Assembly: GCA_963728205.1 (NCBI GenBank)
Contig: CAVSIV010000001.1
Coordinates: 640,001-704,000, forward strand
From: an uncultured Chloroflexia bacterium
Lineage (GTDB): Bacteria; Chloroflexota; Dehalococcoidia; UBA2979
Length of the DNA stretch: 64,000 nt
Reading direction: 5' to 3'
The first letter of the stretch is position 1; the number at the start of each line of letters is the position of its first letter. The translations under genes were made by a program, and so were the position numbers. The notes under the pieces were generated by a model. That model was not told the DNA's origin and searched no databases. It saw only the letters and a program-made list of their open reading frames with translations. Shown here in pieces: positions 47,325 through 64,000 of this stretch.

Positions 47325-48266
47325 CTAGCGCGAGCCGCGCAGGCGCGGGTCGAGCACGTCGCGCACCGCGTCGCCGAACATGTTGGTCGCGAAGACGACA
47401 AGGGTGATCGCGACGCCCGGCAGCATCGCCAGGCGCGGGTTCGTCTTGAAGTAGGCGTTGCCCGTCGCCGACAGCATCGCGCCCCACGACGGCGTCGGCG
47501 GCTGAGCGCCGATGCCGAGGAACGAGAGCGACGCCTCGATGATGATCGCCACGCCGAGGACGTAGGTCGCGAGCACGATCATCGGCGCGATCACGTTGGG
47601 CAGGATGTGGCGGAACATGATGCGTCGGTCCGTGCAGCCGATGCAGCGTGCGGCCTCGACCCACATGTTGTGCTTGGCGGCGAGCGCCGATCCGCGAATG
47701 ACGCGCGCGGGCCGGGGGATCGACAGGAACGCGACGACCCAGAAGCCCTGCCAGATGCCCGGGCCGATGATCGAGACGATCGCGATCGCCAGCACGAGGA
47801 ACGGCACGACCTGGATGGAGTCGACGACGCGCTGGATCACCAGGTCGGTCTTCCCGCCCACGTACGCGGAGAAGAGCCCGACGACGCTGCCCAGCGGGAT
47901 CGAGATGAACGCGACGCCGAGCGCGAAGAAGACGGAGATCTGCGTGCCCTTGAGCAGGCGGCTGAGCATGTCGCGGCCGAGGTTGTCCGTGCCGAGCACG
48001 TAGAAGTGCGTGCCGTCGCGCGATGTCGTCCACATCCCGAGCAGGCGGTCCGCGCCGCGGAACTTCTCGGGGTCATAGGGCAGGATGAGCCCGGTGTACG
48101 CGCCCACCGCGATGACGAGCGCGAGTACGGAAAGGACCCCGCAGATCGCGCCGAGCGGCCGCTGCCTGGCGAATTTCCAGGTGCTTCGGCGGTAGCGCGT
48201 GAGCGCGCCCGGCCCCTGTAGCGACTGGACGCCGACGCCCCCAATCGCGGTTTCTCGCGTTGCCAT
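47325..48266 (-). CDS. Peptide/nickel ABC permease (DppC/OppC-like)
   Basis: LGTDNLGRDMLSRL, EAARCIG..RHILPN, LSFLGIG..PPTPSWG. Confidence 0.9.
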   Translation of the reverse strand: MATRETAIGGVGVQSLQGPGALTRYRRSTWKFARQRPLGAICGVLSVLALVIAVGAYTGLILPYDPEKFRGADRLLGMWTTSRDGTHFYVLGTDNLGRDMLSRLLKGTQISVFFALGVAFISIPLGSVVGLFSAYVGGKTDLVIQRVVDSIQVVPFLVLAIAIVSIIGPGIWQGFWVVAFLSIPRPARVIRGSALAAKHNMWVEAARCIGCTDRRIMFRHILPNVIAPMIVLATYVLGVAIIIEASLSFLGIGAQPPTPSWGAMLSATGNAYFKTNPRLAMLPGVAITLVVFATNMFGDAVRDVLDPRLRGSR

Positions 48267-48289
48267 GACGTCACCCCCTCAGGGAGTCG

Positions 48290-49240
48290 CTACGCGTAAC
48301 GGATGCGCGGGTCGAGCCATGAGTAGCTGAGATCCACGAGCAGGTTCGCGAGCAGCGTGACCGTCACGAGGATGAGCAGGATCCCCTGCACCAGCGGGTA
48401 GTCGCGCTGCAGCACCGCGTTGATGTAGGTGTTTCCGACGCCGTTGATGCTGAAGACCTGCTCGACGATCACCGAGCCGCCGATCACCTGTGCGATCTGG
48501 AAGCCCAGCAGCGTGATCACGGGGATCAGCGCGTTCCGGAACGCGTGCTTGAAGATCACGGAGCGTTCGTTGAGGCCCTTCGCACGTGCCGTGCGCACGT
48601 AGTCCTCGCGCTGCGTCTCGAGCATCGTCGTGCGGATCATGCGCATGTTCTGCGCCGAGAGCGCCGCGCCCAGCACAAAGGCGGCCGGGAGGAACTGCTG
48701 GAGGTTCCCCCACGGGTTCTGCCACAGCGGTTGGTAGCTCTGCGGCGGGAACCAGCCGAACCACTGCGCCGCGTAGATGATGATCATCGTGGCCAGGAAG
48801 AAGTTCGGGATCGAGATGCCCATGATCGAGATGCTGCGCCCCAGGTAGTCGATCCACGTGTCCTGGTACACGGCCGACGACACCCCGACCGGGATCGCGA
48901 TCAGCAATCCGACCACGATGGCGATGGCGCCGAGCTCGAAGCTGATGGGCGCGGCGTGCTGCACGACCTTGAGCACGGGCTGGTTCAACCAGAACGATGT
49001 GCCCCAGTCGCCGTGCGTGATGCCGCCGATCCAGCGGAAGTACTGGACGGGCGCCGGCACGTCGAGTCCGAGCTCGTGCCGGAAGAGCTGCTCGGTCTGC
49101 TTGTCGACGCCGCGCGCCTCCGCCATCTGCGCGACGACGTAGTCGCCGGGCATGATGCGCAGCAGGCCGAACGTCAGGATCGTGATCACCACGATCGTCG
49201 GGATCATCAGGATCAGGCGGCGAATGATGTAGCGCTGCAT
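48290..49240 (-). CDS. Peptide/nickel ABC permease (DppB/OppB-like)
   Basis: DYVRTARAKGL, KHAFRNAL, RDYPLVQG, LDPRIR. Confidence 0.9.
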   Translation of the reverse strand: MQRYIIRRLILMIPTIVVITILTFGLLRIMPGDYVVAQMAEARGVDKQTEQLFRHELGLDVPAPVQYFRWIGGITHGDWGTSFWLNQPVLKVVQHAAPISFELGAIAIVVGLLIAIPVGVSSAVYQDTWIDYLGRSISIMGISIPNFFLATMIIIYAAQWFGWFPPQSYQPLWQNPWGNLQQFLPAAFVLGAALSAQNMRMIRTTMLETQREDYVRTARAKGLNERSVIFKHAFRNALIPVITLLGFQIAQVIGGSVIVEQVFSINGVGNTYINAVLQRDYPLVQGILLILVTVTLLANLLVDLSYSWLDPRIRYA

Positions 49241-50482: not shown

Positions 50483-52357
50483 ATGGACCACTCGAGCTAC
50501 TGGAACCGGCGCCGCTTCGGCCGGCGCGCGGCCATGCGCGGTGCCGGACTGGGTGCCGCCGGCCTGGCGGGGGCCGCCTTGATCGGCTGTGGCGGGGGCA
50601 ATGGTGGGGGCGGCGACAGTGCGGGCGGCGGGGCCACCGTCCCGGCGGGCCAGCTCGTCGGCACCGCGGCCGCGGGGCAGGGCACGGCCGGGGCGAACGC
50701 CACCGCCGTCGCGAAGGACCAGGTCCGCCTCAAGCCCGGCATCTACGACGGCGCGGTTGCCGCATCGCCCGCCGAGGCGAACCCGATGGTCAACGGCAAG
50801 CGCGGCGGCACGCTGCTCATGCGCTACCTCGACCCGCCGCGCATGGACCTCAACCGCACGCTGTCGTGCACCATCTACACGACGCTCAACCACACCAACA
50901 ACAAGCTGGTCCGTGGGCGCACCGGCGCCAACGCGCCGCTCTTCAACGTGGACCTGGAGCCCGACCTCGCCGAGTCGTGGGAGGTCGTCGACAACGGCGC
51001 CCAGTTCAACTTCAAGCTGCGCAAGGGCGTGAAGACGCACAACGTCGCCCCGCTCAACGGCCGCGAGTTCACGTCCGAGGACGTGCTGGCGGGCTACGGC
51101 ATGTACCAGAAGGGCGGCAGTCAGAAGGACGTCTTCTCTCCCGTCGACTCGATGACGGCACCGGATCCGTACACCGTCGTCTTCAAGCTCAAGGAGCCGA
51201 TGTCCGACTTCCCCGCAACGATCGCGTCGTGGGCCTTCGTCTACATGAAGGAGTTCGTGGACGACGATGACCTGCGGCAGAAGCAGGCCGCCGGCACAGG
51301 GCCGTTCATCCAGAAGGAGTGGACGCGCAAGGAGCGCTCGGTCTTCGAGCGACACCCGGACTACTTCGAGAAGGGGCTGCCCTTCGTCGACGGCGTCATC
51401 ACCACGGCGCAGGACGACCTGAACACGCTGCGCGCCAGCTACCAGACCGACCACCTCTTCGAGTGGACCGCGCGCGACGACGCCGACCTGCAGGACATGC
51501 TCAAGTCCCGCGGCGACACCATGGTCGCGACGAAGTTCCCGATCGCGCGCGGCGCGAACGTCAACGGCTTCCAGTTCCAGATGAAGAACAAGACCTTCCA
51601 GGACGAGCGCGTCCGCCACGCCCTGTCGCTCGCGTTCGACCGCAACGGATACGACCAGGCGCAGAACGCCGGCGACAACTCGAACCCTGAAGGTCCGTAT
51701 TCGAACTCGCCCATGCCGTGGCCGTACCTCTTCGACGCCTACCCGACCGCCAAGGCGAACGGCCAGTGGTACCAGTACGACCCGGACCAGGCATCGAAGC
51801 TGATGCAGGCGGCCGGCTACACGAAGGACAAGCCGCTCAGCTTCACGCTCAAGTCGTACTACAACGCCACGCCCATGTCGGAAGTCATGGTGCCGGGCAT
51901 CAACCAGAGCCTTCCCGAGGTCAAGATCACGTTCCTGAAGGTCGACAACCCGACCCACGTGACGCTGATGTCGGACCGGAACTTCGAGGAGGCGGTCGGC
52001 TTCCTGTGGGGGCCGCCCGCATACCCGATGGACCAGTGGATCTACCCCTTCTACCACTCCACGGGGAGCACCAACTACGGAAGCATCAACGACTCGACGC
52101 TGGACGGTCTGCTCGTGAAGCAGCGCCAGGCGACCGACGCGGCGGCGAAGAAGGAGGTCTGGCAGCAGATCTACGCGCGCATCCACGACCAGGTCTACCA
52201 GGCGTGGTTCCCGGAGCCGCGCATTCGCGTCGCGTGGCAGAACTACATGCTGAACTACCGCTACCACGCGTTCATGGGCAGCTACACCTGCTACGCGGCC
52301 GACCAGTCCCGAGCGATCTGGCTCGACGACGGTGCACCGGGCGTGAACCGAACCTAG
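50483..52357 (+). CDS. ABC solute-binding protein, family 5 (Tat lipoprotein)
   Basis: GRRAAMRG...ALIGC lipobox; LEPDLAESWE, FKLRKGVK, GTGPF. Confidence 0.9.
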   Translation: MDHSSYWNRRRFGRRAAMRGAGLGAAGLAGAALIGCGGGNGGGGDSAGGGATVPAGQLVGTAAAGQGTAGANATAVAKDQVRLKPGIYDGAVAASPAEANPMVNGKRGGTLLMRYLDPPRMDLNRTLSCTIYTTLNHTNNKLVRGRTGANAPLFNVDLEPDLAESWEVVDNGAQFNFKLRKGVKTHNVAPLNGREFTSEDVLAGYGMYQKGGSQKDVFSPVDSMTAPDPYTVVFKLKEPMSDFPATIASWAFVYMKEFVDDDDLRQKQAAGTGPFIQKEWTRKERSVFERHPDYFEKGLPFVDGVITTAQDDLNTLRASYQTDHLFEWTARDDADLQDMLKSRGDTMVATKFPIARGANVNGFQFQMKNKTFQDERVRHALSLAFDRNGYDQAQNAGDNSNPEGPYSNSPMPWPYLFDAYPTAKANGQWYQYDPDQASKLMQAAGYTKDKPLSFTLKSYYNATPMSEVMVPGINQSLPEVKITFLKVDNPTHVTLMSDRNFEEAVGFLWGPPAYPMDQWIYPFYHSTGSTNYGSINDSTLDGLLVKQRQATDAAAKKEVWQQIYARIHDQVYQAWFPEPRIRVAWQNYMLNYRYHAFMGSYTCYAADQSRAIWLDDGAPGVNRT

Positions 52358-52393
52358 CGAGGTCGCGCCGCAACAGCCGGCGCGACGATAACG

Positions 52394-52424
52394 GCGGGGC
52401 CCGGCGCGCAGCGCCGGGCCCCGC
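52394..52424 (+). terminator. GC-rich hairpin after SBP1
   Basis: GCGGGGCCCGGCGC-GCA-GCGCCGGGCCCCGC followed by TTCGT. Confidence 0.6.
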
Positions 52425-52466
52425 TTCGTATCTCGCGATGCCACGGCTCAACGAGCCGGGCAATAC

Positions 52467-52521
52467 TTGACAGCGCATATCACGAGCGTGTACATCGCTG
52501 CGATATCGCGACTGTCATGAC
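52467..52521 (+). promoter_or_regulatory. Putative sigma70 promoter with palindromes, upstream of SBP2
   Basis: TTGACA-N18-TACATC, then GCGATATCGC and TGTCATGAC. Confidence 0.5.
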
Positions 52522-52555
52522 ACGAGGCGGTGCGAAGCAGAGGGGACAGCAACTG

Positions 52556-54427
52556 ATGGCAGAGTCCAACTACTGGGTCCGCCGGTCTGTCGGCCGGCGG
52601 GCGGTACTGCGCGGCGCCGGCCTGGGAACGGCCGGACTTGCGGGGGCTGCGCTGATCGGGTGTGGCGGCGGTCAGAGCGGACAGGGCGCCGAGTCCGGCC
52701 AGGCCGGGGCAACGGTGTCGACGGGGCAGATCGTGTCGTCGGCGACCGCGGCGGCCACGTCCGCGAACGCGACCCCCGTTCCCGCAGACCAGGTGCGGCT
52801 GAAGCCGGGGATCTACGAGGGGCCGGTCGCGCCGTCTCCAGCCGAGGCGAACCCCAAGGTCAACGGCAAGCGCGGTGGCACGCTCCTGATGCGGTACCTC
52901 GACCCCCCGCGCATGGACATCAACCGCACGCTCTCGTGCACGATCTACTCAACGCTGAACCTCACGAACAACAAGCTCGTTCGCGGGAAGACCGGTGCGA
53001 ACGCGCCGCTGTTCAACGTGGATCTCGAACCGGACCTCGCCGAGTCCTGGGAGGCGCTGGACGGGAACACGCAGTTCACGTTCAAGCTGCGCAAGGGCGT
53101 GAAGACGCACAACGTCGCACCACTGAACGGGCGCGAGTTCACGTCCGAGGACGTGCTGGCCGGATACGGGATGTACAAGGACGGCGGGAGCCAGAAGGAC
53201 GTCTTCTCGACCGTCGAGTCGATGACGGCGCCGGACCCGTACACGGTCGTTTTCAAGCTCAGCGGTCCGATGTCGGACTTCCCGGCAACCCTGGCCTCCT
53301 GGGGCTTCGTCTACATGAAGGAGTTCGTGGACGACGAGGACCTGCGGCAGAAGCAGGCCGCCGGCACGGGGCCGTTCATCCAGAAGGAGTGGACGCGCAA
53401 GGAGCGCTCGGTCTTCGAGCGGCACCCTGACTACTTCGAGGACGGTCTCCCGTTCGTCGACGAGGTCATCGACACCGCGCAGGACGACCTGAACACGCTG
53501 CGCGCCAGCTTCCAGACGGACCACCTCTTCGAGTGGACGCATCGCGACGACGCGGACGCGGAGGACATGTTCAAGGCGCGCGGCGACACGATGGTCGCCA
53601 CGAAGTTCCCGACCTCGCGCGGCGCAAACGTCAACGGGTTCCAGTTCCAGATGAAGAACCCGACGTACCAGGATGAGCGCGTGCGCCACGCGCTCTCCCT
53701 GGCGCTCGACCGCGACGGGTTCGACGCCGCCTACAACGCGGGCGACAACCAGAACCCCGAGGGTGCGTACTCGAACGCGCCCATGCCGTGGCCGTACCTC
53801 TACGACGCCTACCCCACGGCCAAGGTGAACGGCCAGTGGTACAAGTACGACCCCACAGAGGCGTCAAAGCTGATGCAGGCCGCGGGCTACACGAAGGACA
53901 ACCCGCTCGCGTTCACGCTGAAGTCGTACTACTACGCGACCGCGCTCTCGGAGGTCGTCGTTCCGGGCATCAACCAGAGTCTGCCCGAAGTGAACATCAC
54001 GTGGCAGAAGGTCGACAACCCGACGCATGTCACGCTGATGTCCGATCGCAACTTCGATTCGGCCGTGGGCTTCCTCTGGGGCCCCGCCGGATTCGCGATG
54101 GATCAGTGGATCTACCCCTTCTATCACTCGAAGGGAGGCACGAACTACGGGAGCATCAACGACTCGCAGCTCGACGACCTGCTCATCAAGCAGCGGGAGG
54201 CGTCGGAACTGGACGCGAAGAAGGAGATCTGGCGGCAGGTCTGGGACCGCATCCACGACAAGGTGTACCAGGCCTGGTTCCCGGAGGCGCTGCGGCGCGT
54301 GTCGTGGCACAACTACATGCTGAACTACCGGTACCACGGATTCATGGGCAGCTTCGTCTGCTACACGTCGGACCAGGCACGGGCGATCTGGCTCGACGAC
54401 GGCGCGCCCGGCGTGAACCGCACCTAG
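52556..54427 (+). CDS. ABC solute-binding protein, family 5 (Tat lipoprotein), tandem paralog
   Basis: GRRAVLRG...ALIGC; highly similar to 50483-52357. Confidence 0.9.
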   Translation: MAESNYWVRRSVGRRAVLRGAGLGTAGLAGAALIGCGGGQSGQGAESGQAGATVSTGQIVSSATAAATSANATPVPADQVRLKPGIYEGPVAPSPAEANPKVNGKRGGTLLMRYLDPPRMDINRTLSCTIYSTLNLTNNKLVRGKTGANAPLFNVDLEPDLAESWEALDGNTQFTFKLRKGVKTHNVAPLNGREFTSEDVLAGYGMYKDGGSQKDVFSTVESMTAPDPYTVVFKLSGPMSDFPATLASWGFVYMKEFVDDEDLRQKQAAGTGPFIQKEWTRKERSVFERHPDYFEDGLPFVDEVIDTAQDDLNTLRASFQTDHLFEWTHRDDADAEDMFKARGDTMVATKFPTSRGANVNGFQFQMKNPTYQDERVRHALSLALDRDGFDAAYNAGDNQNPEGAYSNAPMPWPYLYDAYPTAKVNGQWYKYDPTEASKLMQAAGYTKDNPLAFTLKSYYYATALSEVVVPGINQSLPEVNITWQKVDNPTHVTLMSDRNFDSAVGFLWGPAGFAMDQWIYPFYHSKGGTNYGSINDSQLDDLLIKQREASELDAKKEIWRQVWDRIHDKVYQAWFPEALRRVSWHNYMLNYRYHGFMGSFVCYTSDQARAIWLDDGAPGVNRT

Positions 54428-55560: not shown

Positions 55561-56157
55561 TCAGGCGGAGCGCGCCTCGGCGGCGGAGGCGGCGTCGAGC
55601 GCGGCGCGCAGCGCGTGCAGCGCACGCATCTGCGCCGCGCGCGCGGCAGCGGCGGTGCAACCGACGCGCTCCGCGATCTCGTCGTACGACAGGCCGTCGA
55701 TCACCCGCAGCCGCGTGATCCAGCGCTGCCGCGCCGTCAACGCCGAAAACGCGATCTCGATGCGCGCGTCGACCTGATCCGCCAGCGCCTGCTCCTCGGC
55801 AGACGGCTCGATCGGGTCGGGGCTCGCGTCGAGCGGGGAGCTCTGCTTCCGCGTCCGGTAGAAGTCCTTGATCGTGTTCGAGGCGATGTGGAAGAGCCAC
55901 ACATTGAACGGGCGCGACTGGTCGCGCCGGTCGATCGCGCGCAGCGCCTTGAGGAACGTGAGCTGGAGCACGTCCTCGGCGTCCTCGGGTTGCGGGAGCC
56001 GCCGCCGCGCGTAGGCCAGCAGGTCGCGCCGGTAGGCGGCGCAGAGCGTGCCGAAGGCGTCGCGGTCGCCGCCCGCCGCACGCGCCGAGAGGTCGCGCAC
56101 GGCGTCGGGCGTCAGCTCGGCCGCAACCGGCCCGAAGGGGAGGATGGCGTCGCTCAT
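55561..56157 (-). CDS. ECF-type RNA polymerase sigma factor
   Basis: AGGDRDAFG, DAEDVLQLTFLKA, WLFHIASN (region 2); LTARQR..GLSYDEIAERVG (region 4.2). Confidence 0.9.
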   Translation of the reverse strand: MSDAILPFGPVAAELTPDAVRDLSARAAGGDRDAFGTLCAAYRRDLLAYARRRLPQPEDAEDVLQLTFLKALRAIDRRDQSRPFNVWLFHIASNTIKDFYRTRKQSSPLDASPDPIEPSAEEQALADQVDARIEIAFSALTARQRWITRLRVIDGLSYDEIAERVGCTAAAARAAQMRALHALRAALDAASAAEARSA

Positions 56158-56260
56158 ACCTGGAGAATCGGCTGAGTCGGCGCTGAAGATTACCCGCGCT
56201 CCCCTCTGCGGAACTGGCCGGACCGGCCGACAGGGGCCGCGTGACGCGCCGGGACGTGCG

Positions 56261-56312: not shown

Positions 56313-57146
56313 CTATGCGGCGAGCCGTGCCCGCTTCGCCGCGATGAAGTCGGCGACGTCCTCGGAGGAGGCCTCGACCTCGGCGAGGAGCCGCTCGTAG
56401 TCGCGGATGAGCGCGTTGGCGCTGGCCGCGTCGAGCATGGCGCCCTTCGCCTTGGAGGCTCCCTGGCGGAGGGCCAGGGCGAGCACGCCAACCGGAGCGG
56501 TGAAGGCGGCGAAGCCGAGCGGACCGAGCTCTCGCCAGGAGAGTGCGAGCCCGAGGGCGACGAGGCCCATCACCGCGAAGTGGACGGCGAGCCAGAGGTA
56601 GTTGTCCTTGACGACCTTTCCGAGCGCCTGTCCGGTGGTGCACGAAATCATCGCGCCCACCAGCGTCATGTTGACGATCCACATCGCCAGCCCCGCCGCG
56701 ACGGCGGCGACGACGAGGGTGCCGGCGCTCTCCGGCATGAGCCGGGTGAGCCCCGCGTAGACCCCCGCCGCCGCGGTGCCGGCGAGCACCAGGACGGCGG
56801 AGTTGTAGGCGAGGCGGGAGACCGGCTTGTGGCGGAAGAGCCACGCGGCCAGCCCGACGACGATCGCGAGCGGCACGGCCGCCCCGACGCCGTAGAGGAT
56901 CCCGCCCCCGACGATCGCGGCCGCGGAGACGGACGCGCGCGTCTGGGTGAAGAGCTGGGTGCCCTGGCGTTCGAGCACCGCGGCGAGCGCCAGCATCAGC
57001 AGGAGCCCGCCCCATTCCGGCGGCCGGAGGAAGACCAGGAGGCCTGCTCCGGCGACCGCGCCGAATCCCGTCACCCCGTACAGGAGGGCCTGTGCCCTGC
57101 TCCGGGCGAGGGATGAGATCCACCGTGTGGTGGGACTCTCAGCCAT
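56313..57146 (-). CDS. Multi-pass membrane sensor-like protein (resembles the N-terminal membrane domain of HD-GYP/GGDEF proteins) with no catalytic domain, copy A
   Basis: About 7-8 TM segments; ASVSAAAI..G ILYG, KP..RLAYN; ends after a short amphipathic helix. Confidence 0.75.
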   Translation of the reverse strand: MAESPTTRWISSLARSRAQALLYGVTGFGAVAGAGLLVFLRPPEWGGLLLMLALAAVLERQGTQLFTQTRASVSAAAIVGGGILYGVGAAVPLAIVVGLAAWLFRHKPVSRLAYNSAVLVLAGTAAAGVYAGLTRLMPESAGTLVVAAVAAGLAMWIVNMTLVGAMISCTTGQALGKVVKDNYLWLAVHFAVMGLVALGLALSWRELGPLGFAAFTAPVGVLALALRQGASKAKGAMLDAASANALIRDYERLLAEVEASSEDVADFIAAKRARLAA

Positions 57147-57185: not shown

Positions 57186-58985
57186 CTAGTCCCAGGTGAT
57201 GGCATCCCAGGTGATGGCGTCCCACGTGATGCTGTCCCAGGTGATCGAGTCCCACGTGATGGCGTCCCACGTGATGGAGTCCCACGTGATCGAGTCCCAC
57301 GTGATGGAGTCCCACGTGATCGAGTCCGGCGACGCCGGCTTGTTCTGGATCGAGCCGTCGCTGCCGATCCACAGGCTCTTCGGGAGCCCCTGGTTCGCGG
57401 CGCCCTGGCTCGGGCCGAACACGGCATCGTAGGCATTCAGCGCCGGCGCGTTGGAGCTGGGGAACGTGTCAGCCGTCCCCGTCAGCTGGGCCTTCACCTG
57501 GTCCGGCGTGAGGGACGGGTTGTGCTGGAGCATCAGCGCGACGGTGCCGGAGACGACCGGGGCCGACTCGGAGGTGCCGCTGAGCATCATGTAGTGCTCG
57601 CCGACACGAAGCTTCGGGTTCTGCAGGTAGAGCAGCGACGGCTTGTTGCCCGTCGTCGCGATCAGGTGCCAGCCCGGGGCAACCAGGTCGGGCTTCTGGA
57701 ACCCGTCGTGCGTCGTGCCGTACGTCGACCACGACGCCAGCGTGTCGTCCGTCGTCTCGAGCGTCGCATTGTCGCTGAAGGCGCCGACGGAGATCACGTA
57801 CGGGTCGTTCGCGGGTGGGTGGTCCGTCGCGAACGCGTCGCTCGTGCCGAGGTTGCCCTCCGACGAGACGACGACGATGCCGTGGAACCACAGCTGCTCA
57901 ATCGCGGCGTCGAGCGGGCTCGTGAAGAAGCTCTCCGGCGTCGACTGCGTGAACGACATGTTCGCGACGCGGATGTTGTACTTCGCCTGGTTGTCCAGCA
58001 CGTACTCGAGACCCGCGAGGACGTCGCCGAGCTCGATGCCCTTTTCGAACGTTCCCACCTGGACGTCGACGATGTTCGCGTCCGGGGCGATACCCATGTA
58101 GCGCCCCTGGCTGTCAGCGCCGTTGCCCGCGATCACGCCGGCCGTGTGCGTGCCATGCCCGTACGGGTCGCGGACGCCCGCGAGCGCCGTGTCGTTCGGG
58201 GTGTAGCGCGCGACCACGCGGCCGCCGAAGTCGGAGCCGACGGCGTGGCTGACGCCGGTGTCGATGACCGCAACGCCGATGCCCTTACCGGTGACTCCCT
58301 CGTCCCAGACGTCGGTTGCGCCGACGACCTGCGGGAACACGGACACGACGTCGGTGTAGTCACCGCGCTGCTTCCCGTCGGGGAGCCTGGAGCCGAGGAT
58401 CGAGGCGCGGTCCTGGTGCGTACCCTTGGGGCCGGCGGCTGCCTTGGGGGCCGGCGTTGCCTTCGGCGCGGGGGCCGCCTTGGTGCCCGGGCCAACCTTC
58501 GGAGCGCGCGCCGCCTTCTTATCCGGTCCGGCCTTCGGGGCCGGAGTCGGGGTCGGGGTCGGCGTGCCCCCCGCCAGCAGCGACGTCCAGTTGTTGCGGT
58601 CTCGTGGGCCGCGGCCCGTCATCTCGATGTTCGAGTTGAGGCTGATCGACTTGACCGACGTGTTGCCGGCCAGCGCGTCGAGCTGGTCGACGGGGATGGT
58701 CGCCTCGACGGCGGGAATGATGTGGTACTGCTGCGACACGGTGCCGCCGGCCGCCTCGACGGCGGCAGCGGTGGCATCGGTATCGCCGGTGGACTGGATG
58801 ATGACGGCGACGAAGCCGTTGTCCTGGTTGGCGGTGTCGTACACGGCGGCGTTGACGTTGCTCGGGCCGGCGGCGCGGGCGGGGGCCTGCGACGCGGGCC
58901 CGAGCATGAGCGCGACCGCGACGAGCGCGACCAGGACGGTGAGGAAGACCGGCCAGCGCCGGCCGGTGAGCTTGTTCAGGACCAC
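57186..58985 (-). CDS. Secreted S8 subtilisin-like protease A with 9x (S/A)ITWD tail
   Basis: Signal peptide, I9-like prodomain, VAVIDTG (Asp), HGTHTAG (His), SEGN (oxyanion Asn), SGTSESAP (Ser). Probable start GTG 58985. Confidence 0.92.
   Translation of the reverse strand: MVLNKLTGRRWPVFLTVLVALVAVALMLGPASQAPARAAGPSNVNAAVYDTANQDNGFVAVIIQSTGDTDATAAAVEAAGGTVSQQYHIIPAVEATIPVDQLDALAGNTSVKSISLNSNIEMTGRGPRDRNNWTSLLAGGTPTPTPTPAPKAGPDKKAARAPKVGPGTKAAPAPKATPAPKAAAGPKGTHQDRASILGSRLPDGKQRGDYTDVVSVFPQVVGATDVWDEGVTGKGIGVAVIDTGVSHAVGSDFGGRVVARYTPNDTALAGVRDPYGHGTHTAGVIAGNGADSQGRYMGIAPDANIVDVQVGTFEKGIELGDVLAGLEYVLDNQAKYNIRVANMSFTQSTPESFFTSPLDAAIEQLWFHGIVVVSSEGNLGTSDAFATDHPPANDPYVISVGAFSDNATLETTDDTLASWSTYGTTHDGFQKPDLVAPGWHLIATTGNKPSLLYLQNPKLRVGEHYMMLSGTSESAPVVSGTVALMLQHNPSLTPDQVKAQLTGTADTFPSSNAPALNAYDAVFGPSQGAANQGLPKSLWIGSDGSIQNKPASPDSITWDSITWDSITWDSITWDAITWDSITWDSITWDAITWDAITWD
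57189..57323 (-). repeat. 9 x 15-bp coding repeat, (S/A)ITWD
   Basis: Six SITWD and three AITWD, with synonymous codon variation, ending at the stop codon. Confidence 0.95.
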
Positions 58986-59057
58986 TGCACTTTCCAATCG
59001 CTGTTGGCGTTGGCGAATGCGTCACCGCTCGGCGCGTGCGTCGCGCCTCGCGGCGGG

Positions 59058-59156
59058 TCCCCGTTCGGCAGCCCGGCTACCCGTGGCTCTGTGTGAGCCG
59101 GGAGGGCCCGTGGCTTTGCGTCCCCCGGTTCCCCGGGGTTTGCCGTTGTCGTGGGG
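59058..59156 (-). ncRNA. c-di-GMP-I (GEMM) riboswitch aptamer A2
   Basis: Minus strand: ACGGCAAACCCCGG-GGAA-CCGGGGGACGCAAAGCCACGGGCCC...GGTAGCCGGGCTGCCGAA. Confidence 0.88.
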
Positions 59157-59357: not shown

Positions 59358-59413
59358 ATTGCCGCTTGCCAGGGACGGCTCGCCGTTGCGGCGGGGCGTC
59401 CCTTACCCGGGAA

Positions 59414-59440
59414 GACGAACGACGGGCACTCCGCGTGACG
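59414..59440 (-). promoter_or_regulatory. Putative ECF promoter A, CGTCAC-N17-CGTC
   Basis: CGTCAC gcggagtgcccgtcgtt CGTC ttcc. Confidence 0.6.
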
Positions 59441-59506
59441 CGCCGGGACGTGCGAAGGCGGGGGCCGTGGGCGCCCCCGCCTTGGTGCTGAGCCGCGGTC
59501 CGCCGC

Positions 59507-60341
59507 CTATGCGGCGAGCCGTGCCCGCTTCGCCGCGATGAAGTCGGCGACGTCCTCGGAGGAGGCCTCGACCTCGGCGAGGAGCCGCTCGTAGTCGCGG
59601 ATGAGCGCGTTGGCGCTGGCCGCGTCGAGCATGGCGCCCTTCGCCTTGGAGGCTCCCTGGCGGAGGGCCAGGGCGAGCACGCCAACCGGAGCGGTGAAGG
59701 CGGCGAAGCCGAGCGGACCGAGCTCTCGCCAGGAGAGTGCGAGCCCGAGGGCGACGAGGCCCATCACCGCGAAGTGGACGGCGAGCCAGAGGTAGTTGTC
59801 CTTGACGACCTTTCCGAGCGCCTGTCCGGTGGTGCACGAGATCATCGCGCCCACCAGCGTCATGTTGACGATCCACATCGCCAGCCCCGCCGCGACGGCG
59901 GCGACGACGAGGGTGCCGGCGCTCTCCGGCATGAGCCGGGTGAGCCCCGCGTAGACCCCCGCCGCCGCGGTGCCGGCGAGCACCAGGACGGCGGAGTTGT
60001 AGGCGAGGCGGGAGACCGGCTTGTGGCGGAAGAGCCACGCGGCCAGCCCGACGACGATCGCGAGCGGCACGGCCGCCCCGACGCCGTAGAGGATCCCCGC
60101 CCCCGACGATCGCGGCCGCGGAGACGGACGCGCGCGTCTGGGTGAAGAGCTGGGTGCCCTGGCGTTCGAGCACCGCGGCGAGCGCCAGCATCAGCAGGAG
60201 CCCGCCCCATTCCGGCGGCCGGAGGAAGACCAGGAGGCCTGCTCCGGCGACCGCGCCAAATCCCGTCACCCCGTACAGGAGGGCCTGTGCCCTGCTCCGG
60301 GCGAGGGATGAGAGCCACCCGGTGGTGGAAGTCTCAGCCAT
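59507..60341 (-). CDS. Membrane sensor-like protein, copy B (extra C at 60095-60098 relative to copy A; error or pseudogene)
   Basis: Near-identical to copy A, with GGATCCCC instead of GGATCCC. Confidence 0.75.
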
Positions 60342-60382: not shown

Positions 60383-62068
60383 CTAGTCCCAGGTAATCGA
60401 GTCCCAGGTGATGGCGTCCCACGTGATGCTGTCCCAGGTGATCGAGTCCCACGTGATGGCGTCCCACGTGATCGAGTCCCACGTGATGCTGTCCCAGGTG
60501 ATCGAGTCCCACGTGATCGAGTCCCACGTGATCGACGCCGGGCCGGCGGGGATGTTCTGGATCGAGCCGTCGCTGCCGATCCACAGGCTGCGCGGCAGCC
60601 CCTGGTTCGCGAGGCTCGCGTCCGCGGTGAACACCGCGCCGTACGCGTCGAGCGCCGGTGCGGTCGAGCCGGTGAAGGCCTTGCCCGTGTCGACGATCCG
60701 CGCCTTCACCTGGTCGGGCGTGAGCGACGGGTTCTGCTGCAGCATCAGGGCGACGGTGCCGGAGACCACCGGGGCCGCCGACGAGGTGCCGCTGAGCTTC
60801 ATGTAGCGTGAGCCGACACGCAGGTCCGGGTTGTCAAGGTACAGCAGCGACATCGCGTTGCCGGTGGTGGCGATCAGGCGCCATCCCGGGGCGATCACGT
60901 CCGGCTTCTGGAAGCCGTCGTGCGTCGTGCCGCGGCTCGACCAGTCCTTGAGGAAGTCGTCGGATGTGTCGAGCGTGGCGTTGTCGCTGAAGGCGCCCAC
61001 GGTGATGACGTACGGGTCGTTCGCTGGCGGGTGGTCCGTCACGTAGGCGTCGGACGTCCCGCGGTTGCCCGCAGCGGTCACGACGACGATGCCGTGGAAC
61101 CAGAGCTGCTCGACGGCGGCGTCGAGCGGGCTCGTGAAGAAGCTCTCCGGCGTCGACTGCGTGAACGAGAGGTTCGCGACGCGGATGTTGTACTGGGCCT
61201 GGTGGTCCAGCGTGTACTGGAGTCCGGCGATCACGTCGCCCAGCTTGATGCCCAGGGCGTAGTCACCGACGCGGACCGCGATGATGTTCGCGTCCGGTGC
61301 GATGCCCATGTAGCGCCCAAGGCTGTCGGTGCCGTCGCCGGCGACGATGCCGGCCACGTGCGTGCCGTGACCGTAGGCGTCGCTGCTGGTCAGTCCGCTC
61401 GGGGCGTAGCTCGCGACGATGCGGTTGCCGAAGTCGTTGCGACCGACGTCGTTCACGCCGGTGTCGATGATGGCGACCCCGACGCCCTGGCCCATGACGC
61501 CTTCATCCCAGGCGTCGGTGGCGCCGACGACCTGCGGGAACACCGAGACCACGTCCGTGTAGCGACCGCGCGCCTTCCCGTTCGGGAGGCTCTGGCCGAG
61601 GATCGAGTACCGGTCGGCCTTCGGCGTCGCGCTGTCGGTCGTGGGCGTGGGCGTCGCCGTGGCCTTGAGCAGCGACTTCCAGTCCGGGGCACCGAGACCG
61701 GTCGGCTGGATGTCCGAGTTCAGGCTGATCGACTTGACCGACGGGTTGGCGGCCAGCGCGTCGAGCTGGTCGACGGGGATGGTCGCCTCGACGGCGGGGA
61801 TGATGTGGAACTGCTGCGAGACCGTGCCGCCGGCAGTCGCGACGGCCGCGGCGGTGGCATCGGTATCGCCGGTGGACTGGATGATGACGGCGACGAAGCC
61901 GTTGTCCTGGTTGGCGGGGTCGAGGACGGCCGCGTGCACGTTGCTCGGGCCGGCCGCGCGGGCGGGTGCCTGCGAGGCGGGGCCGAGCATGAGCGCGACC
62001 GCGACGAGCGCGACCAGGACGGTGAGGAAGACCGGCCAGCGCCGGCCGGTGAGCTTGTTCAGGACCAC
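60383..62068 (-). CDS. Secreted S8 subtilisin-like protease B with 10x (S/A)ITWD tail
   Basis: VAIIDTG, HGTHVAG, AAGN, SGTSSAAP; same signal peptide as protease A. Probable start GTG 62068. Confidence 0.92.
   Translation of the reverse strand: MVLNKLTGRRWPVFLTVLVALVAVALMLGPASQAPARAAGPSNVHAAVLDPANQDNGFVAVIIQSTGDTDATAAAVATAGGTVSQQFHIIPAVEATIPVDQLDALAANPSVKSISLNSDIQPTGLGAPDWKSLLKATATPTPTTDSATPKADRYSILGQSLPNGKARGRYTDVVSVFPQVVGATDAWDEGVMGQGVGVAIIDTGVNDVGRNDFGNRIVASYAPSGLTSSDAYGHGTHVAGIVAGDGTDSLGRYMGIAPDANIIAVRVGDYALGIKLGDVIAGLQYTLDHQAQYNIRVANLSFTQSTPESFFTSPLDAAVEQLWFHGIVVVTAAGNRGTSDAYVTDHPPANDPYVITVGAFSDNATLDTSDDFLKDWSSRGTTHDGFQKPDVIAPGWRLIATTGNAMSLLYLDNPDLRVGSRYMKLSGTSSAAPVVSGTVALMLQQNPSLTPDQVKARIVDTGKAFTGSTAPALDAYGAVFTADASLANQGLPRSLWIGSDGSIQNIPAGPASITWDSITWDSITWDSITWDSITWDAITWDSITWDSITWDAITWDSITWD
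60386..60535 (-). repeat. 10 x 15-bp coding repeat, (S/A)ITWD
   Basis: Eight SITWD and two AITWD, ending at the stop codon. Confidence 0.95.
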
Positions 62069-62141
62069 TGCACTTTCCAATCGCTGTTGGCGTTGGCGAA
62101 TGCGTCACCGCTCGGCGCGTGCGTCGCGCCTCGCGGCGGGT

Positions 62142-62239
62142 CCCCGTTCGGCAGCCCGGCTACCCGTGGCTCTGTGTGAGCCGGGAGGGCCCGTGGCTTT
62201 GCGTCCCCCGGTTCCCCGGGGTTTGCCGTTGTCGTGGGG
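62142..62239 (-). ncRNA. c-di-GMP-I riboswitch aptamer B2
   Basis: Essentially identical to A2. Confidence 0.88.
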
Positions 62240-62438: not shown

Positions 62439-62494
62439 ATTGCCGCTTGCCAGGGACGGCTCGCCGTTGCGGCGGGGCGTCCCTTACCCGGGAA

Positions 62495-62521
62495 GACGAA
62501 CGTCAGACCGGGTTTGTGACG
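62495..62521 (-). promoter_or_regulatory. Putative ECF promoter B, CGTCAC-N17-CGTC
   Basis: CGTCAC aaacccggtctgacgtt CGTC ttcc. Confidence 0.6.
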
Positions 62522-62588
62522 TATGTCGCGGGCGCCGTCGACCCTGAGCCGTCCGGCGCCCGCGCGTTTCATGTTGATCAGCCGCCGG

Positions 62589-62795
62589 CTAATCCCAGGT
62601 GATCGAGAACGTGCCGTAGCTCGGCCCGGGGGCCGGAGCGGGCGTCGAGGCGGCCGGGGGCCCGATCTGGCTCGACGAGGGCTTGGCCGCCGAGCTGACA
62701 CCCGGCGAGCCGAACAGCGAAGCACCGGCGAGGATTCCGCCGGCGACGACGGCGACGACGATGCGGTGGAGGTGACCAAACTTGCGCAGGACCAT
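62589..62795 (-). CDS. 68-aa secreted peptide ending in SITWD (candidate signal-peptide precursor)
   Basis: MVLRKFGHLHRIVVAVVAGGILAGASLFGSPGVSSA-AKPSSSQIGPPAASTPAPAPGPSYGTFSITWD*. GGGGA RBS; start context AGTGCA-(A/G)TGGTCCTG shared with the proteases. Confidence 0.8.
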   Translation of the reverse strand: MVLRKFGHLHRIVVAVVAGGILAGASLFGSPGVSSAAKPSSSQIGPPAASTPAPAPGPSYGTFSITWD

Positions 62796-62838
62796 TGCAC
62801 TGTCCCCATTCCGGATCATGAGACTCGTGGTGCGTGGT

Positions 62839-62937
62839 CCCCGTTCGGTAGCCCGGCTACCCGTGGCTCGGTGAGAGCCGGGAGGGCCCGTGGCTTTGCG
62901 TCCCCCGGTTCCCCGGGGTTTGCCGTTTGTCGTGGGG
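62839..62937 (-). ncRNA. c-di-GMP-I riboswitch aptamer C2
   Basis: ACGGCAAACCCCGGGGAACCGGGGGACGCAAAGCCACGGG...GGTAGCCGGGCTACCGAA. Confidence 0.88.
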
Positions 62938-63046: not shown

Positions 63047-63138
63047 TTCGGTAGCCCGGCCGTCATGACCCCTCGACGAGGGGCGGTAGACCCGTGGGCT
63101 TTGCGCCACCCGGTTTCCCGGGTTTTGCCGTTTCTCGG
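63047..63138 (-). ncRNA. c-di-GMP-I riboswitch aptamer C1
   Basis: ACGGCAAAACCCGGGAAACCGGGTGGCGCAAAGCCCACGGGTCTA...ATGACGGCCGGGCTACCGAA. Confidence 0.9.
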
Positions 63139-63193
63139 ATTGCCTGCATGCGCGGGACGCGCGACCTCCGTCGAGAGTCCCGTCACCGGAGAA

Positions 63194-63220
63194 GACGAAC
63201 GGGTACCGGCCGGTGTGACG
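63194..63220 (-). promoter_or_regulatory. Putative ECF promoter C, CGTCAC-N17-CGTC
   Basis: CGTCAC accggccggtacccgtt CGTC ttct. Confidence 0.6.
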
Positions 63221-63340: not shown

Positions 63341-64000
63341 CTAGGCGGCGACCTGCGGGCGGTGCGTGGCGATGAACTCCGCGACGTCCTCCGAGGAGGA
63401 CTCCACCTCGGCCAGCAGCCGCTCGTACTCCGCGATCAGCTGGTTCGCGCTCGCGGCGTCGAGCATGGCGCCCTGCGCCTTCGACGCGCCCTGGCGCAGC
63501 GCCAGCGCCAGCACGCCGACCGGCGCGGTGAACGCCGCGAAGCCGAGCATCCCCAGTTCGCGCCATGACAGCGCGAGTCCGAGCGCAACGAGTCCCATCA
63601 CGGCGAAGTGCACCGCGAGCCACAGGTAGTTCTCGCGGATGACGGCGAGCAGCGGCTGCCCGGTCGTGAGCGCGATCATCGCGCCGACCAGGCTCATGTT
63701 GACGGTCCACATCGCGATGCCGGCGCCGACGGCCGCGACCACGAAGGTCGCCGCGCTCGCGGGCAGGAGCGACGTGATCAGCGCGTACGTCCCGGCGGAC
63801 GCCGCGCCGGCCAGGATCAGCACCGCCGAGTTGTAGGTCAGCCGAGAGAACGGCTTGTGCCGGAAGAGCCAGGCCGCGAGGCCCACGGCGATCGCCAGCG
63901 GGACCGCGGCGCCGACGCCGTAGAGGATGCCGGCACCCATGATCGCCGCGGCTGAGACCGAGGCGCGCGTCTGCGTGAAGAGCTGCGTGCCCTGCCGCTC
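63341..64000 (-). CDS. Membrane sensor-like protein, copy C (diverged; 5' end beyond the window)
   Basis: Same motifs as copy A: ILYGVGAAVPLAI, RHKP, NYLWLAVHFAVMG, YERLLAEVE. Confidence 0.8.
   Translation of the reverse strand, partial: ERQGTQLFTQTRASVSAAAIMGAGILYGVGAAVPLAIAVGLAAWLFRHKPFSRLTYNSAVLILAGAASAGTYALITSLLPASAATFVVAAVGAGIAMWTVNMSLVGAMIALTTGQPLLAVIRENYLWLAVHFAVMGLVALGLALSWRELGMLGFAAFTAPVGVLALALRQGASKAQGAMLDAASANQLIAEYERLLAEVESSSEDVAEFIATHRPQVAA

Follow-up and report, generated by a model that had tools for sequence, protein, structure and literature searches.

A candidate small exported protein behind a tandem c-di-GMP riboswitch ends in one unit of the tail repeat of neighbouring S8 proteases

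Organization of the locus

The window analysed here is a stretch of 64,000 nucleotides (nt) from the genome of an uncultured soil Dehalococcoidia bacterium (genome G000, 4.13 Mb, 72.5% GC; the window is G000:C1:640001-704000). Its minus strand contains a small open reading frame (ORF; 62589..62795, read 62795->62589) composed of 68 codons and a TAG stop, which is present as an earlier note on this DNA had described it. The ORF very probably is a real gene, and its N-terminus, which is of the export type, suggests that the product is a small exported protein. The ORF is located behind a pair of class I cyclic di-GMP (c-di-GMP-I) riboswitch aptamers. Its last five residues, SITWD, are the unit repeated in the C-terminal tails of two S8 proteases of the same locus, nine times in protease A and eleven times in protease B, in agreement with the observation from which the earlier note had started.

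Read on the minus strand from high to low coordinates, the locus is composed of membrane protein C (whose start lies outside the window and whose end is at 63341), an aptamer pair, the small ORF, an aptamer pair, protease B, membrane protein B, an aptamer pair, protease A, membrane protein A and an extracytoplasmic function (ECF) sigma factor. Protease B (60383..62080) and protease A (57186..58997) match the S8 peptidase family PF00082 with E-values of 1e-43 and 2.9e-42, and their aptamers lie at 62439-62346 and 62236-62146 and at 59358-59265 and 59153-59063, respectively. The tails of [SA]ITWD units occupy 60383-60545 in protease B and 57186-57330 in protease A, and each array runs into the stop codon.

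The small protein starts with a putative signal peptide or signal anchor (residues 1-36, 62688..62795), as read from the translation. Both of the segments that the earlier note had assigned to it are found: a basic n-region (residues 1-11, with R4, K5 and R11 as well as H8 and H10) and a hydrophobic h-region of 17 residues (12-28). The order of the remaining parts is also as proposed, the sequence VSSA/A being followed by a spacer rich in Pro, Ser and Ala and finally by YGTF-SITWD and the stop codon. The C-terminal block PAPG-x5-F-SITWD (62592..62636), defined by an alignment of the four family members described below, is conserved, and its last five codons (62606->62592) correspond to one protease tail unit. 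Downstream of the stop codon, RNA folding gives a GC-rich hairpin (62527..62564), which lacks a U-tract and is a possible terminator. The fold of the region 62600->62440 has a z-score of -3.57, and none of 200 shuffled sequences folds as well. A scan with a terminator consensus returned no site.

The coding status of the ORF is indicated by its composition and by its homologues. The GC content at third codon positions (GC3) of its frame is 0.88, and the homologue in G003, which comes from another genome of this genus, has a value of 0.90. The neighbouring genes have values of 0.92-0.95, and the two long frames overlapping the ORF reach 0.66-0.68. In addition, a purine-rich, Shine-Dalgarno-like stretch is found 4-7 nt 5' of the start in every copy of the small ORF. 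Because of the difference in GC3 from the overlapping frames, together with homologues in which start, frame and stop are kept, we judge the ORF to be a real gene. The product matches no Pfam or NCBIfam family. Contigs from four DNA sequencing runs align to this stretch as short pieces, mostly at the aptamers, and none of them bridges the ORF.

A family of small proteins in one genus

Homologues were sought by scanning the sequence 3' of every c-di-GMP-I aptamer in five related genomes. Three of the four main genomes are fragmented metagenome-assembled genomes (MAGs), namely G001 (380 contigs, 95% complete) and G003 (310 contigs, 90% complete), which belong to the same genus as G000, and G002 (80% complete). 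The scan revealed a homologue on G003:C121, which has 91 codons, starts with MVL, ends in SITWN and lies behind a tandem aptamer pair. A profile built from these two sequences was searched against a collection of 5.8 billion proteins and yielded three proteins among 308 candidates, one of which, the metagenomic protein P0002 (91 residues, ending in SITWN), was new. A six-frame search added a homologue on G001:C62, composed of 93 codons behind two aptamers and ending in AITWD. The earlier note had called for searches for small homologous ORFs; they do exist, within this genus.

All four members start with MVL and end with PAPG-x3-5-[FL]-[SA]ITW[DN] directly before the stop codon. When the four sequences are aligned, no variation is seen at M1, V2, L3, R11, G19, L22, A25, P31 and A36 and, in the C-terminal part, at P54-A55-P56-G57 and I65-T66-W67. 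The terminal ITW is thus present in all four (SITWD, SITWN, SITWN and AITWD), which bears out the expectation that the terminal pentapeptide would be conserved among homologues. The conserved C-terminal block extends over about 15 residues and runs to the stop codon in every member. The residue before the terminal unit is always hydrophobic (F, L, L and L), and the positions three residues further back are occupied by Y, V, V and I. At the other end, all four proteins keep the basic and hydrophobic N-terminal pattern. The signal-peptidase site proposed earlier stands only in part: VSSA/A, read by eye, is canonical in G000, but the site is not conserved, and two homologues have Pro at +1. Since the site is canonical only in G000, a membrane-anchored form of the small protein would seem as likely as a soluble one.

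Between the conserved ends, the middle of the protein varies in length and sequence. The genes measure 204, 273 and 279 nt, and all length changes are in frame. The three gene pairs give dN/dS values of 0.59/0.93, 0.54/0.64 and 0.63/0.96 (nonsynonymous over synonymous divergence). The small protein as a whole is therefore under weak constraint, most of which falls on its two ends. A hairpin and a run of T's come after the stop codon of the gene in G003. The homologues in G003 and G001 stand with their riboswitch pair among unrelated genes (enzymes and a tRNA), in different neighbourhoods and far from any protease. Because gene and riboswitch pair stand apart from the proteases in these two genomes, the arrangement points to an autonomous unit and not to a local deletion scar. 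An origin as a deletion remnant was considered and rejected, as the ORF and the proteases have no sequence in common 3' of their stop codons.

Wider searches returned no further member. Profile searches gave 98 pattern matches in genome contigs and 76 in metagenome contigs, none of which was confirmed. In a six-frame search of 401 genomes of the class, a significant match was obtained only in G000; 49 other genomes gave E-values of 6.7e-4 to 0.1 and at most 22 bits, and none of these matches, which were not viewed singly, reaches the last position of the model. The DNA pattern for I-x-W-[DN]-stop has 22 matches in G001, G002, G003, G023 and G043, and no further analogue is among them: 13 end in TGG without a stop codon, two are the known ORFs, two are protease ends, and the five others were checked and are not analogous. 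In G002, the six-frame search did not find the ORF, although absence is not shown by an 80% complete assembly.

The riboswitch leader and the start-codon helix

Both aptamers of the small-ORF unit are full-length matches to the Rfam family RF01051 (gathering score 35) on the strand of the ORF. Aptamer 1 (63047..63139) scores 66.9 bits and aptamer 2 (62844..62934) 63.5 bits. With a similar pair before each protease, the ORF has a riboswitch pair of its own, as claimed earlier. The aptamer pairs of the homologues score 55.7 and 49.6 bits in G003, and 53.2 and 46.6 bits in G001. The second aptamer of both protease units (59063-59153 and 62146-62236, minus strand) is matched best by the c-di-GMP-I-GGC variant (61.5 bits, gathering score 59), while aptamer 2 of the small-ORF unit is best described as plain c-di-GMP-I. 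Tandem c-di-GMP riboswitches are already known and are described as enriched in Thermodesulfobacteriota and Deinococcota (PMC12452182).

The segment between aptamer 2 and the first codons (62787..62843) constitutes the putative expression platform. In its minimum free energy (MFE) fold, GGGGACC (62842->62836) pairs with AUGGUCC (62795->62789), which hides the start codon. Six leaders were folded, namely those of the small ORF, protease A and protease B in G000, of the small ORF and a protease in G003, and of the small ORF in G001. In all six, GGGGACC lies directly 3' of aptamer 2 and pairs in the MFE fold with (A/G)UGGUCC, a heptamer made up of the start codon and the four bases behind it. The corresponding elements lie in the regions 62068 and 58985 of the window and in L037, L070 and L030. 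The spacers between the two pairing elements are about 40-80 nt long and unrelated in sequence.

This helix offers an explanation for the shared start context AGTGCA(A/G)TGGTCCTG, which the earlier note had reported for the ORF and the proteases and which our alignment reproduces. Judging from the predicted folds, the common M-V-L start is imposed by the helix that sequesters the start codon and so reflects an RNA constraint. Because the helix imposes it, the common start is no evidence that the small gene derives from a truncated protease. The description of the ORF as a "signal only", cut-down version of the protease gene therefore fails: riboswitch leader, first three codons and last five residues are all that the two share.

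The GGGG run could alternatively pair with a CCCC run located 5' of aptamer 2, as read from the sequence. The C-run just 5' of aptamer 2 presumably has the position of the closing helix P1, as in the Vc2 structure. Ligand binding would then probably free the start codon, and the leader would act as an ON switch.

The ORF had also been credited with its own promoter. A scan for sigma-70-type promoters gave no site; what lies upstream of aptamer 1 is a different conserved motif, GTCACA-N16-CGTC(TTC) (63191..63219, minus strand), promoter-like and putative in function. This motif is found 5' of aptamer 1 in all three units of G000 (the other two at ~62480-62510 and ~59400-59430, minus strand) and in the small-ORF unit of G001, and partly in the protease unit of G003. 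We take it to resemble an ECF-type promoter. It may be one, perhaps read by the ECF sigma factor encoded at 56175-55561.

Several further c-di-GMP-I aptamers are present in the genus. A seventh one in the region, G000:C1:704833-704927 (minus strand, 44.6 bits), lies just past the window and is followed by a protein of 155 residues, which matches the DnaJ domain weakly (26.8 bits against a cut-off of 27.8), and then by membrane protein C. Others are located at G000:C1:782192-782286 and G000:C6:264006-264096, with one each in G002 and G003. The genes behind these aptamers, identified by eye, include a Flp-type pilin-like gene and a gene for a secreted Gly-Asn-repeat protein. The riboswitch regulon of the genus appears to consist of surface and secreted proteins.

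The Trp-centred tails of the proteases

In the six-frame translation of the G000 genome, ITWD occurs 27 times: 20 times in the two proteases, once in the small ORF and six times elsewhere. None of the six other occurrences precedes a stop codon. Because of these genome-wide counts and positions, the match between the ORF and the tails is beyond chance. The looser pattern [IVL]xW[DNE]-stop closes nine frames in the genome, and only three of these, the two proteases and an unrelated frame of 590 residues, have a GC3 of at least 0.85 when measured from stop to stop.

Tails of this kind are widespread. A search with protease B among 1.84 billion cluster representatives found 66,713 relatives at E <=1e-3. 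The catalytic residues D202, H234 and S429 are invariant in the protease alignment of 85 sequences. Among the 150 best relatives, 106 carry at least three tandem xxxW[DENQ] pentapeptides (3 to 37 units), so that Trp-repeat tails appear to end very many bacterial subtilases. The commonest units in those 150 are SVNWN, SVSWN and SVNWD. The arrays usually lie 0-11 residues from the C-terminus, and sometimes further domains follow. The c-di-GMP-controlled S8 proteases of the genus have 7 to 21 units. Another S8 protease of the genus, L018 (G002:C8), has a tail of VLGRD units, with partly masked bases. Units of the ITW type are confined to the closest protease relatives among those examined; because of this confinement, the end of the ORF appears to copy the lineage-specific flavour of the tail unit.

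No Pfam or NCBIfam model covers the tail. In proteases A and B, Pfam assigns Peptidase_S8 only, and the pentapeptide-repeat family PF00805 is not detected. Among the papers listed by literature searches with the motif, none describes Trp-repeat tails. Small proteins built of tail units were also sought: none of 36-116 residues was found, and the longer ones number three, two of which belong to the window itself. The possibility that the Trp units are modified by a radical S-adenosylmethionine (SAM) enzyme, in the manner of ribosomally synthesized and post-translationally modified peptides (RiPPs), was rejected, as no maturase-like gene is present among the 16 neighbouring proteins scanned.

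The AlphaFold2 model of protease B, based on the 85-sequence alignment, contains a confidently predicted I9-like propeptide and catalytic domain (mean predicted local distance difference test score, pLDDT, 82.9). The 21-unit tail of a G003 protease, folded alone, forms regular three-residue strands in the best model (pLDDT 77-95). The closest matches of this model in the Protein Data Bank (PDB) are pentapeptide-repeat beta-helices, the SV2 luminal domain (E = 6e-7) being followed by Rfr23, AlbG and MfpA (E = 5e-3 to 5e-2). On the basis of these models, the tail is most likely either a solenoid of the pentapeptide-repeat kind with Trp at its centre or a segment that needs a binding partner in order to fold. 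Since the tail is widespread and its 21-unit version models as a beta-solenoid, the models speak for a module with a structural or binding role and against a series of cargo peptides or a store of signal peptides.

A conserved membrane protein and sigma factor

Membrane protein A (56313..57146, minus strand), a polytopic protein resembling MASE9, is encoded directly 3' of protease A. Membrane protein B (60341-59507, within the stretch 59403-60341, minus strand) takes the corresponding position behind protease B. Its frame is split by one additional G in a run of G's; otherwise it is 99% identical to copy A over 350 nt. The extra G could reflect a pseudogene or a homopolymer error of the assembly. 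Within the genus and its neighbours, where the pairing was examined, this same polytopic membrane protein follows every tailed protease for which downstream sequence is available (both in G000, and those on G003:C25, G003:C83, G023:C20 and G002:C238). A search in the Atlas feature space places the membrane protein near MASE9 clusters (0.95; 15-32% of the members of the nearest clusters carry MASE9), which serves as a lead only. The protein has no GGDEF/EAL or kinase output. The locus is closed by the ECF sigma factor (55561..56175, minus strand), matching Pfam Sigma70_r2 and r4 and NCBIfam sigma70-ECF. In G003 (G003:C25), too, a sigma factor is encoded behind the membrane protein, with 77% identity.

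The neighbours of the ORF thus comprise riboswitches, S8 proteases, the MASE9-like protein, the ECF sigma factor, a DnaJ-domain protein and a fumarylacetoacetate (FAA) hydrolase. A scan of these neighbours alone found no tetratricopeptide-repeat (TPR) receptor of the Rap/RRNPP type (Rap, NprR, PlcR, PrgX) beside the ORF. Two ATP-binding cassette (ABC) permeases and two paralogous SBP_bac_5 peptide-binding proteins are encoded at 47325-49240 (minus strand) and 50483-54427 (plus strand), 8-15 kb from the ORF and outside the repeated unit.

A free-standing copy of the tail unit

The earlier note's broader proposal, a separately regulated small gene with an exported product and a conserved C-terminal unit, holds, export being read from the N-terminus. 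We tentatively favour the reading, in our view close to an even call, that the small protein is exported as a tail unit standing by itself and engages whatever reads the tails of the proteases; the reader is left unnamed. In this reading, the basic and hydrophobic N-terminal segment would send the protein through Sec and would then be cleaved or kept as a membrane anchor. Its free C-terminus, held beyond a variable spacer rich in Pro and Ala, would present the block of about 15 residues ending in a single [SA]ITW[DN] unit. Two c-di-GMP-I aptamers and the helix hiding the start codon would gate its expression, with the ligand probably freeing the start codon. Outside the cell, the protein would act as a one-unit mimic of the protease tail. 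The reader could be the MASE9-like membrane protein, the end of the beta-solenoid formed by the tail, or the substrate cleft of the protease, in which the small protein might then be cleaved behind the conserved F/L. By this means, the small protein may tune a module of protease and membrane sensor that ends in the ECF sigma factor. The anatomy and conservation of the gene, and the regulation and the unit that it has in common with the proteases, are shown by the sequences; that the product is exported, what it binds and which way the switch turns are inferred.

Several points weigh against this reading. On its own, a single pentapeptide is unable to fold, and its binding would be weak. The dN/dS values, only mildly below 1, suggest that most of the small protein is weakly constrained. 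The family is known from one genus, with four members, and no RNA sequencing run containing the ORF stretch was found. The sequence correspondence is also imperfect, as the G003 protease tails are built of AITWD and GI[RK]WD vs SITWN at the end of the G003 small protein. In G001, no tailed protease was found with protease B and the tail as queries, although this genome is a 95% complete MAG and absence is not shown. As to the proposed readers, the membrane protein has no match to PF20972 (MASE9) even at E <=10. The structural argument has limits as well: the 11-unit tail of protease B has a pLDDT below 50, the five models of the 21-unit tail have mean pLDDT values of 74.6, 71.4, 58.6, 45.1 and 42.2 (two of five above 70), and the solenoid model derives from one sequence and reaches TM-scores to PDB structures of at most 0.36.

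Alternative readings

The earlier note had interpreted the small protein as a Phr-like pro-peptide, in which the S8 proteases cut before the last five residues and the pentapeptide, also released from the tails, serves as a diffusible signal that is taken up or sensed. We consider this unlikely, though it has several features on its side. The signal segment, variable spacer and extreme C-terminus conserved up to the stop codon in all four members are those of such a precursor. F/L/L/L before the unit and Y/V/V/I three residues further back fit the S1/S4 preference of subtilisin, so that the Phe which the note had named as the P1 residue has a hydrophobic counterpart in every homologue. The gene is moreover co-regulated with S8 proteases that have an intact catalytic triad, and adjoins them in G000; the 11-unit tail is modelled as disordered and hence would be accessible, and the two SBP_bac_5 proteins and two ABC permeases are encoded 8-15 kb away. 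The release of SITWD by this cut is nevertheless weakened by the tail, the receptor and the G003 units. Liberating units from an array requires cleavage after Asp/Asn, which is atypical for S8 enzymes, and the conserved block is about 15 residues long rather than five. In G003, the unit of the ORF is not that of the tails. Tail modules of this kind occur widely, with 3-37 units and sometimes further domains behind them, and a long version models as a solenoid. Furthermore, no Rap/RRNPP-type receptor is present among the scanned neighbours, and the peptide transporter is located outside the repeated unit.

A regulator acting in trans on the protease appears quite unlikely. Here the C-terminal block would plug the S8 substrate cleft like a product, delaying or limiting the protease near the producing cell. 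Propeptide C-termini are known to occupy the subtilisin cleft, and the proteases of this locus are modelled with a confident I9-like propeptide. The hydrophobic residues before the unit would fit the S1/S4 pockets, and the same riboswitch design would provide co-induction. Such a plug is difficult to reconcile with the presence of the gene in G001, where no tailed protease was found, and with the free acidic or amide residue at the C-terminus, which is no obvious P1 residue.

A more elaborate version of the tail-reading idea, improbable as a whole, has the MASE9-like protein sense the Trp-centred unit as a ligand at the membrane. In this version, the ligand would exist in a multivalent, tethered form as the protease tail and in a c-di-GMP-gated, monovalent form as the small protein, which would compete with the tail or prime the sensor. 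The sensor would hold or release the ECF sigma factor, and the latter would drive the GTCACA-N16-CGTC promoters that precede every riboswitch unit. If true, c-di-GMP, the secreted protease and the ECF sigma factor would be linked in a self-contained extracellular feedback loop.

We also doubt that the gene is an evolutionary by-product, namely a chimera of riboswitch leader, first protease codons and last tail unit that is ancestral to the genus and has little or no function. The likeness to the protease gene is confined to the ends, dN/dS is 0.6-0.85, the family occurs in one genus, and long open frames are cheap at 72.5% GC, all as expected for such an origin. Against it, the frame and both conserved ends have survived a dS of ~0.65-0.95 and several in-frame length changes, the conserved PAPG block is absent from the proteases, the gene stands in three different neighbourhoods with its riboswitch pair intact, and GC3 is 0.88-0.90.

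Least of all do we expect the frame to be an accident inside a long riboswitch-regulated leader or small RNA: the missing Pfam/NCBIfam family and RNA run would fit this, but GC3, the start, frame and stop kept in three genomes, the Shine-Dalgarno-like element and a start-codon-sequestering helix that makes sense only with initiation at that codon make it very improbable.

Comparison with known systems

The reading of the small protein as a free-standing tail unit can be set beside four known systems. The Phr pro-peptides of Bacillus are small, Sec-exported proteins in which a variable spacer precedes the active pentapeptide at the C-terminus; they are encoded in Rap-Phr cassettes and processed by subtilisin, Epr and Vpr. 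The protein described here resembles them as a small precursor (68-93 residues) with an N-terminal hydrophobic segment, probably exported, and a conserved C-terminal block at the stop codon in four of four members. It differs in that no Rap/RRNPP receptor gene, the defining feature of the Phr family, is adjacent, and in that the conserved block exceeds five residues, the unit is tandemly repeated on proteases and expression is under riboswitch control.

With the pentapeptide-repeat proteins (PF00805; Rfr23, MfpA, Qnr, AlbG and the SV2 luminal domain), the tail shares a five-residue period in which position i-2 is hydrophobic and position i is taken by a large hydrophobic residue. The 21-unit tail is modelled as a strand-turn solenoid, and its best PDB matches are in this group. 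The tail differs in having no profile match, in the central Trp that replaces Leu/Phe and in TM-scores of at most 0.36, and the small ORF, which has one unit, cannot form such a fold alone.

PPEP-1/ZmpI of Clostridioides difficile is a secreted metalloprotease that cleaves at Pro-Pro sites and has large LPXTG adhesins as substrates. There too, a secreted protease and proteins with its recognition motif are both under c-di-GMP riboswitches. The riboswitches of that system are opposite in polarity, unlike those of the present locus, and the small protein described here is only a candidate substrate.

What is new at the present locus is a free C-terminus that carries a protease tail reduced to one unit, together with the constraint that the riboswitch places at codon level on the first three residues. 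The leader also provides a testable example of a tandem c-di-GMP riboswitch that would act on translation and constrain the first three codons. A clue to the partner is built into the small protein, which ends freely in the unit that the secreted proteases under the same control carry as a repeat, and this natural one-unit version offers a simple handle on what reads the Trp-repeat tails.

The closest published kind, as far as the available description goes, is the CD1980.2 family of C. difficile, which appears to be a separate family. Its members are membrane-associated proteins of 58 residues encoded behind c-di-GMP-I riboswitches; they control sporulation, are repressed by c-di-GMP through premature transcription termination, and are described as having no homologues outside C. 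difficile (PMC13724677). By this description, both families are small, have a hydrophobic segment and no known domain, are lineage-restricted and easily overlooked, and are encoded directly 3' of a class I c-di-GMP riboswitch. They differ in that the tandem aptamers and start-codon helix of the present locus suggest translational activation, and in that the CD1980.2 proteins, as described, lack a C-terminal motif in common with a protease, so that the likeness is one of kind. That small proteins behind c-di-GMP riboswitches matter has been shown only recently, in the control of sporulation reported for C. difficile. The family from uncultured soil Dehalococcoidia is a second one, apparently unrelated to that of C. 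difficile.

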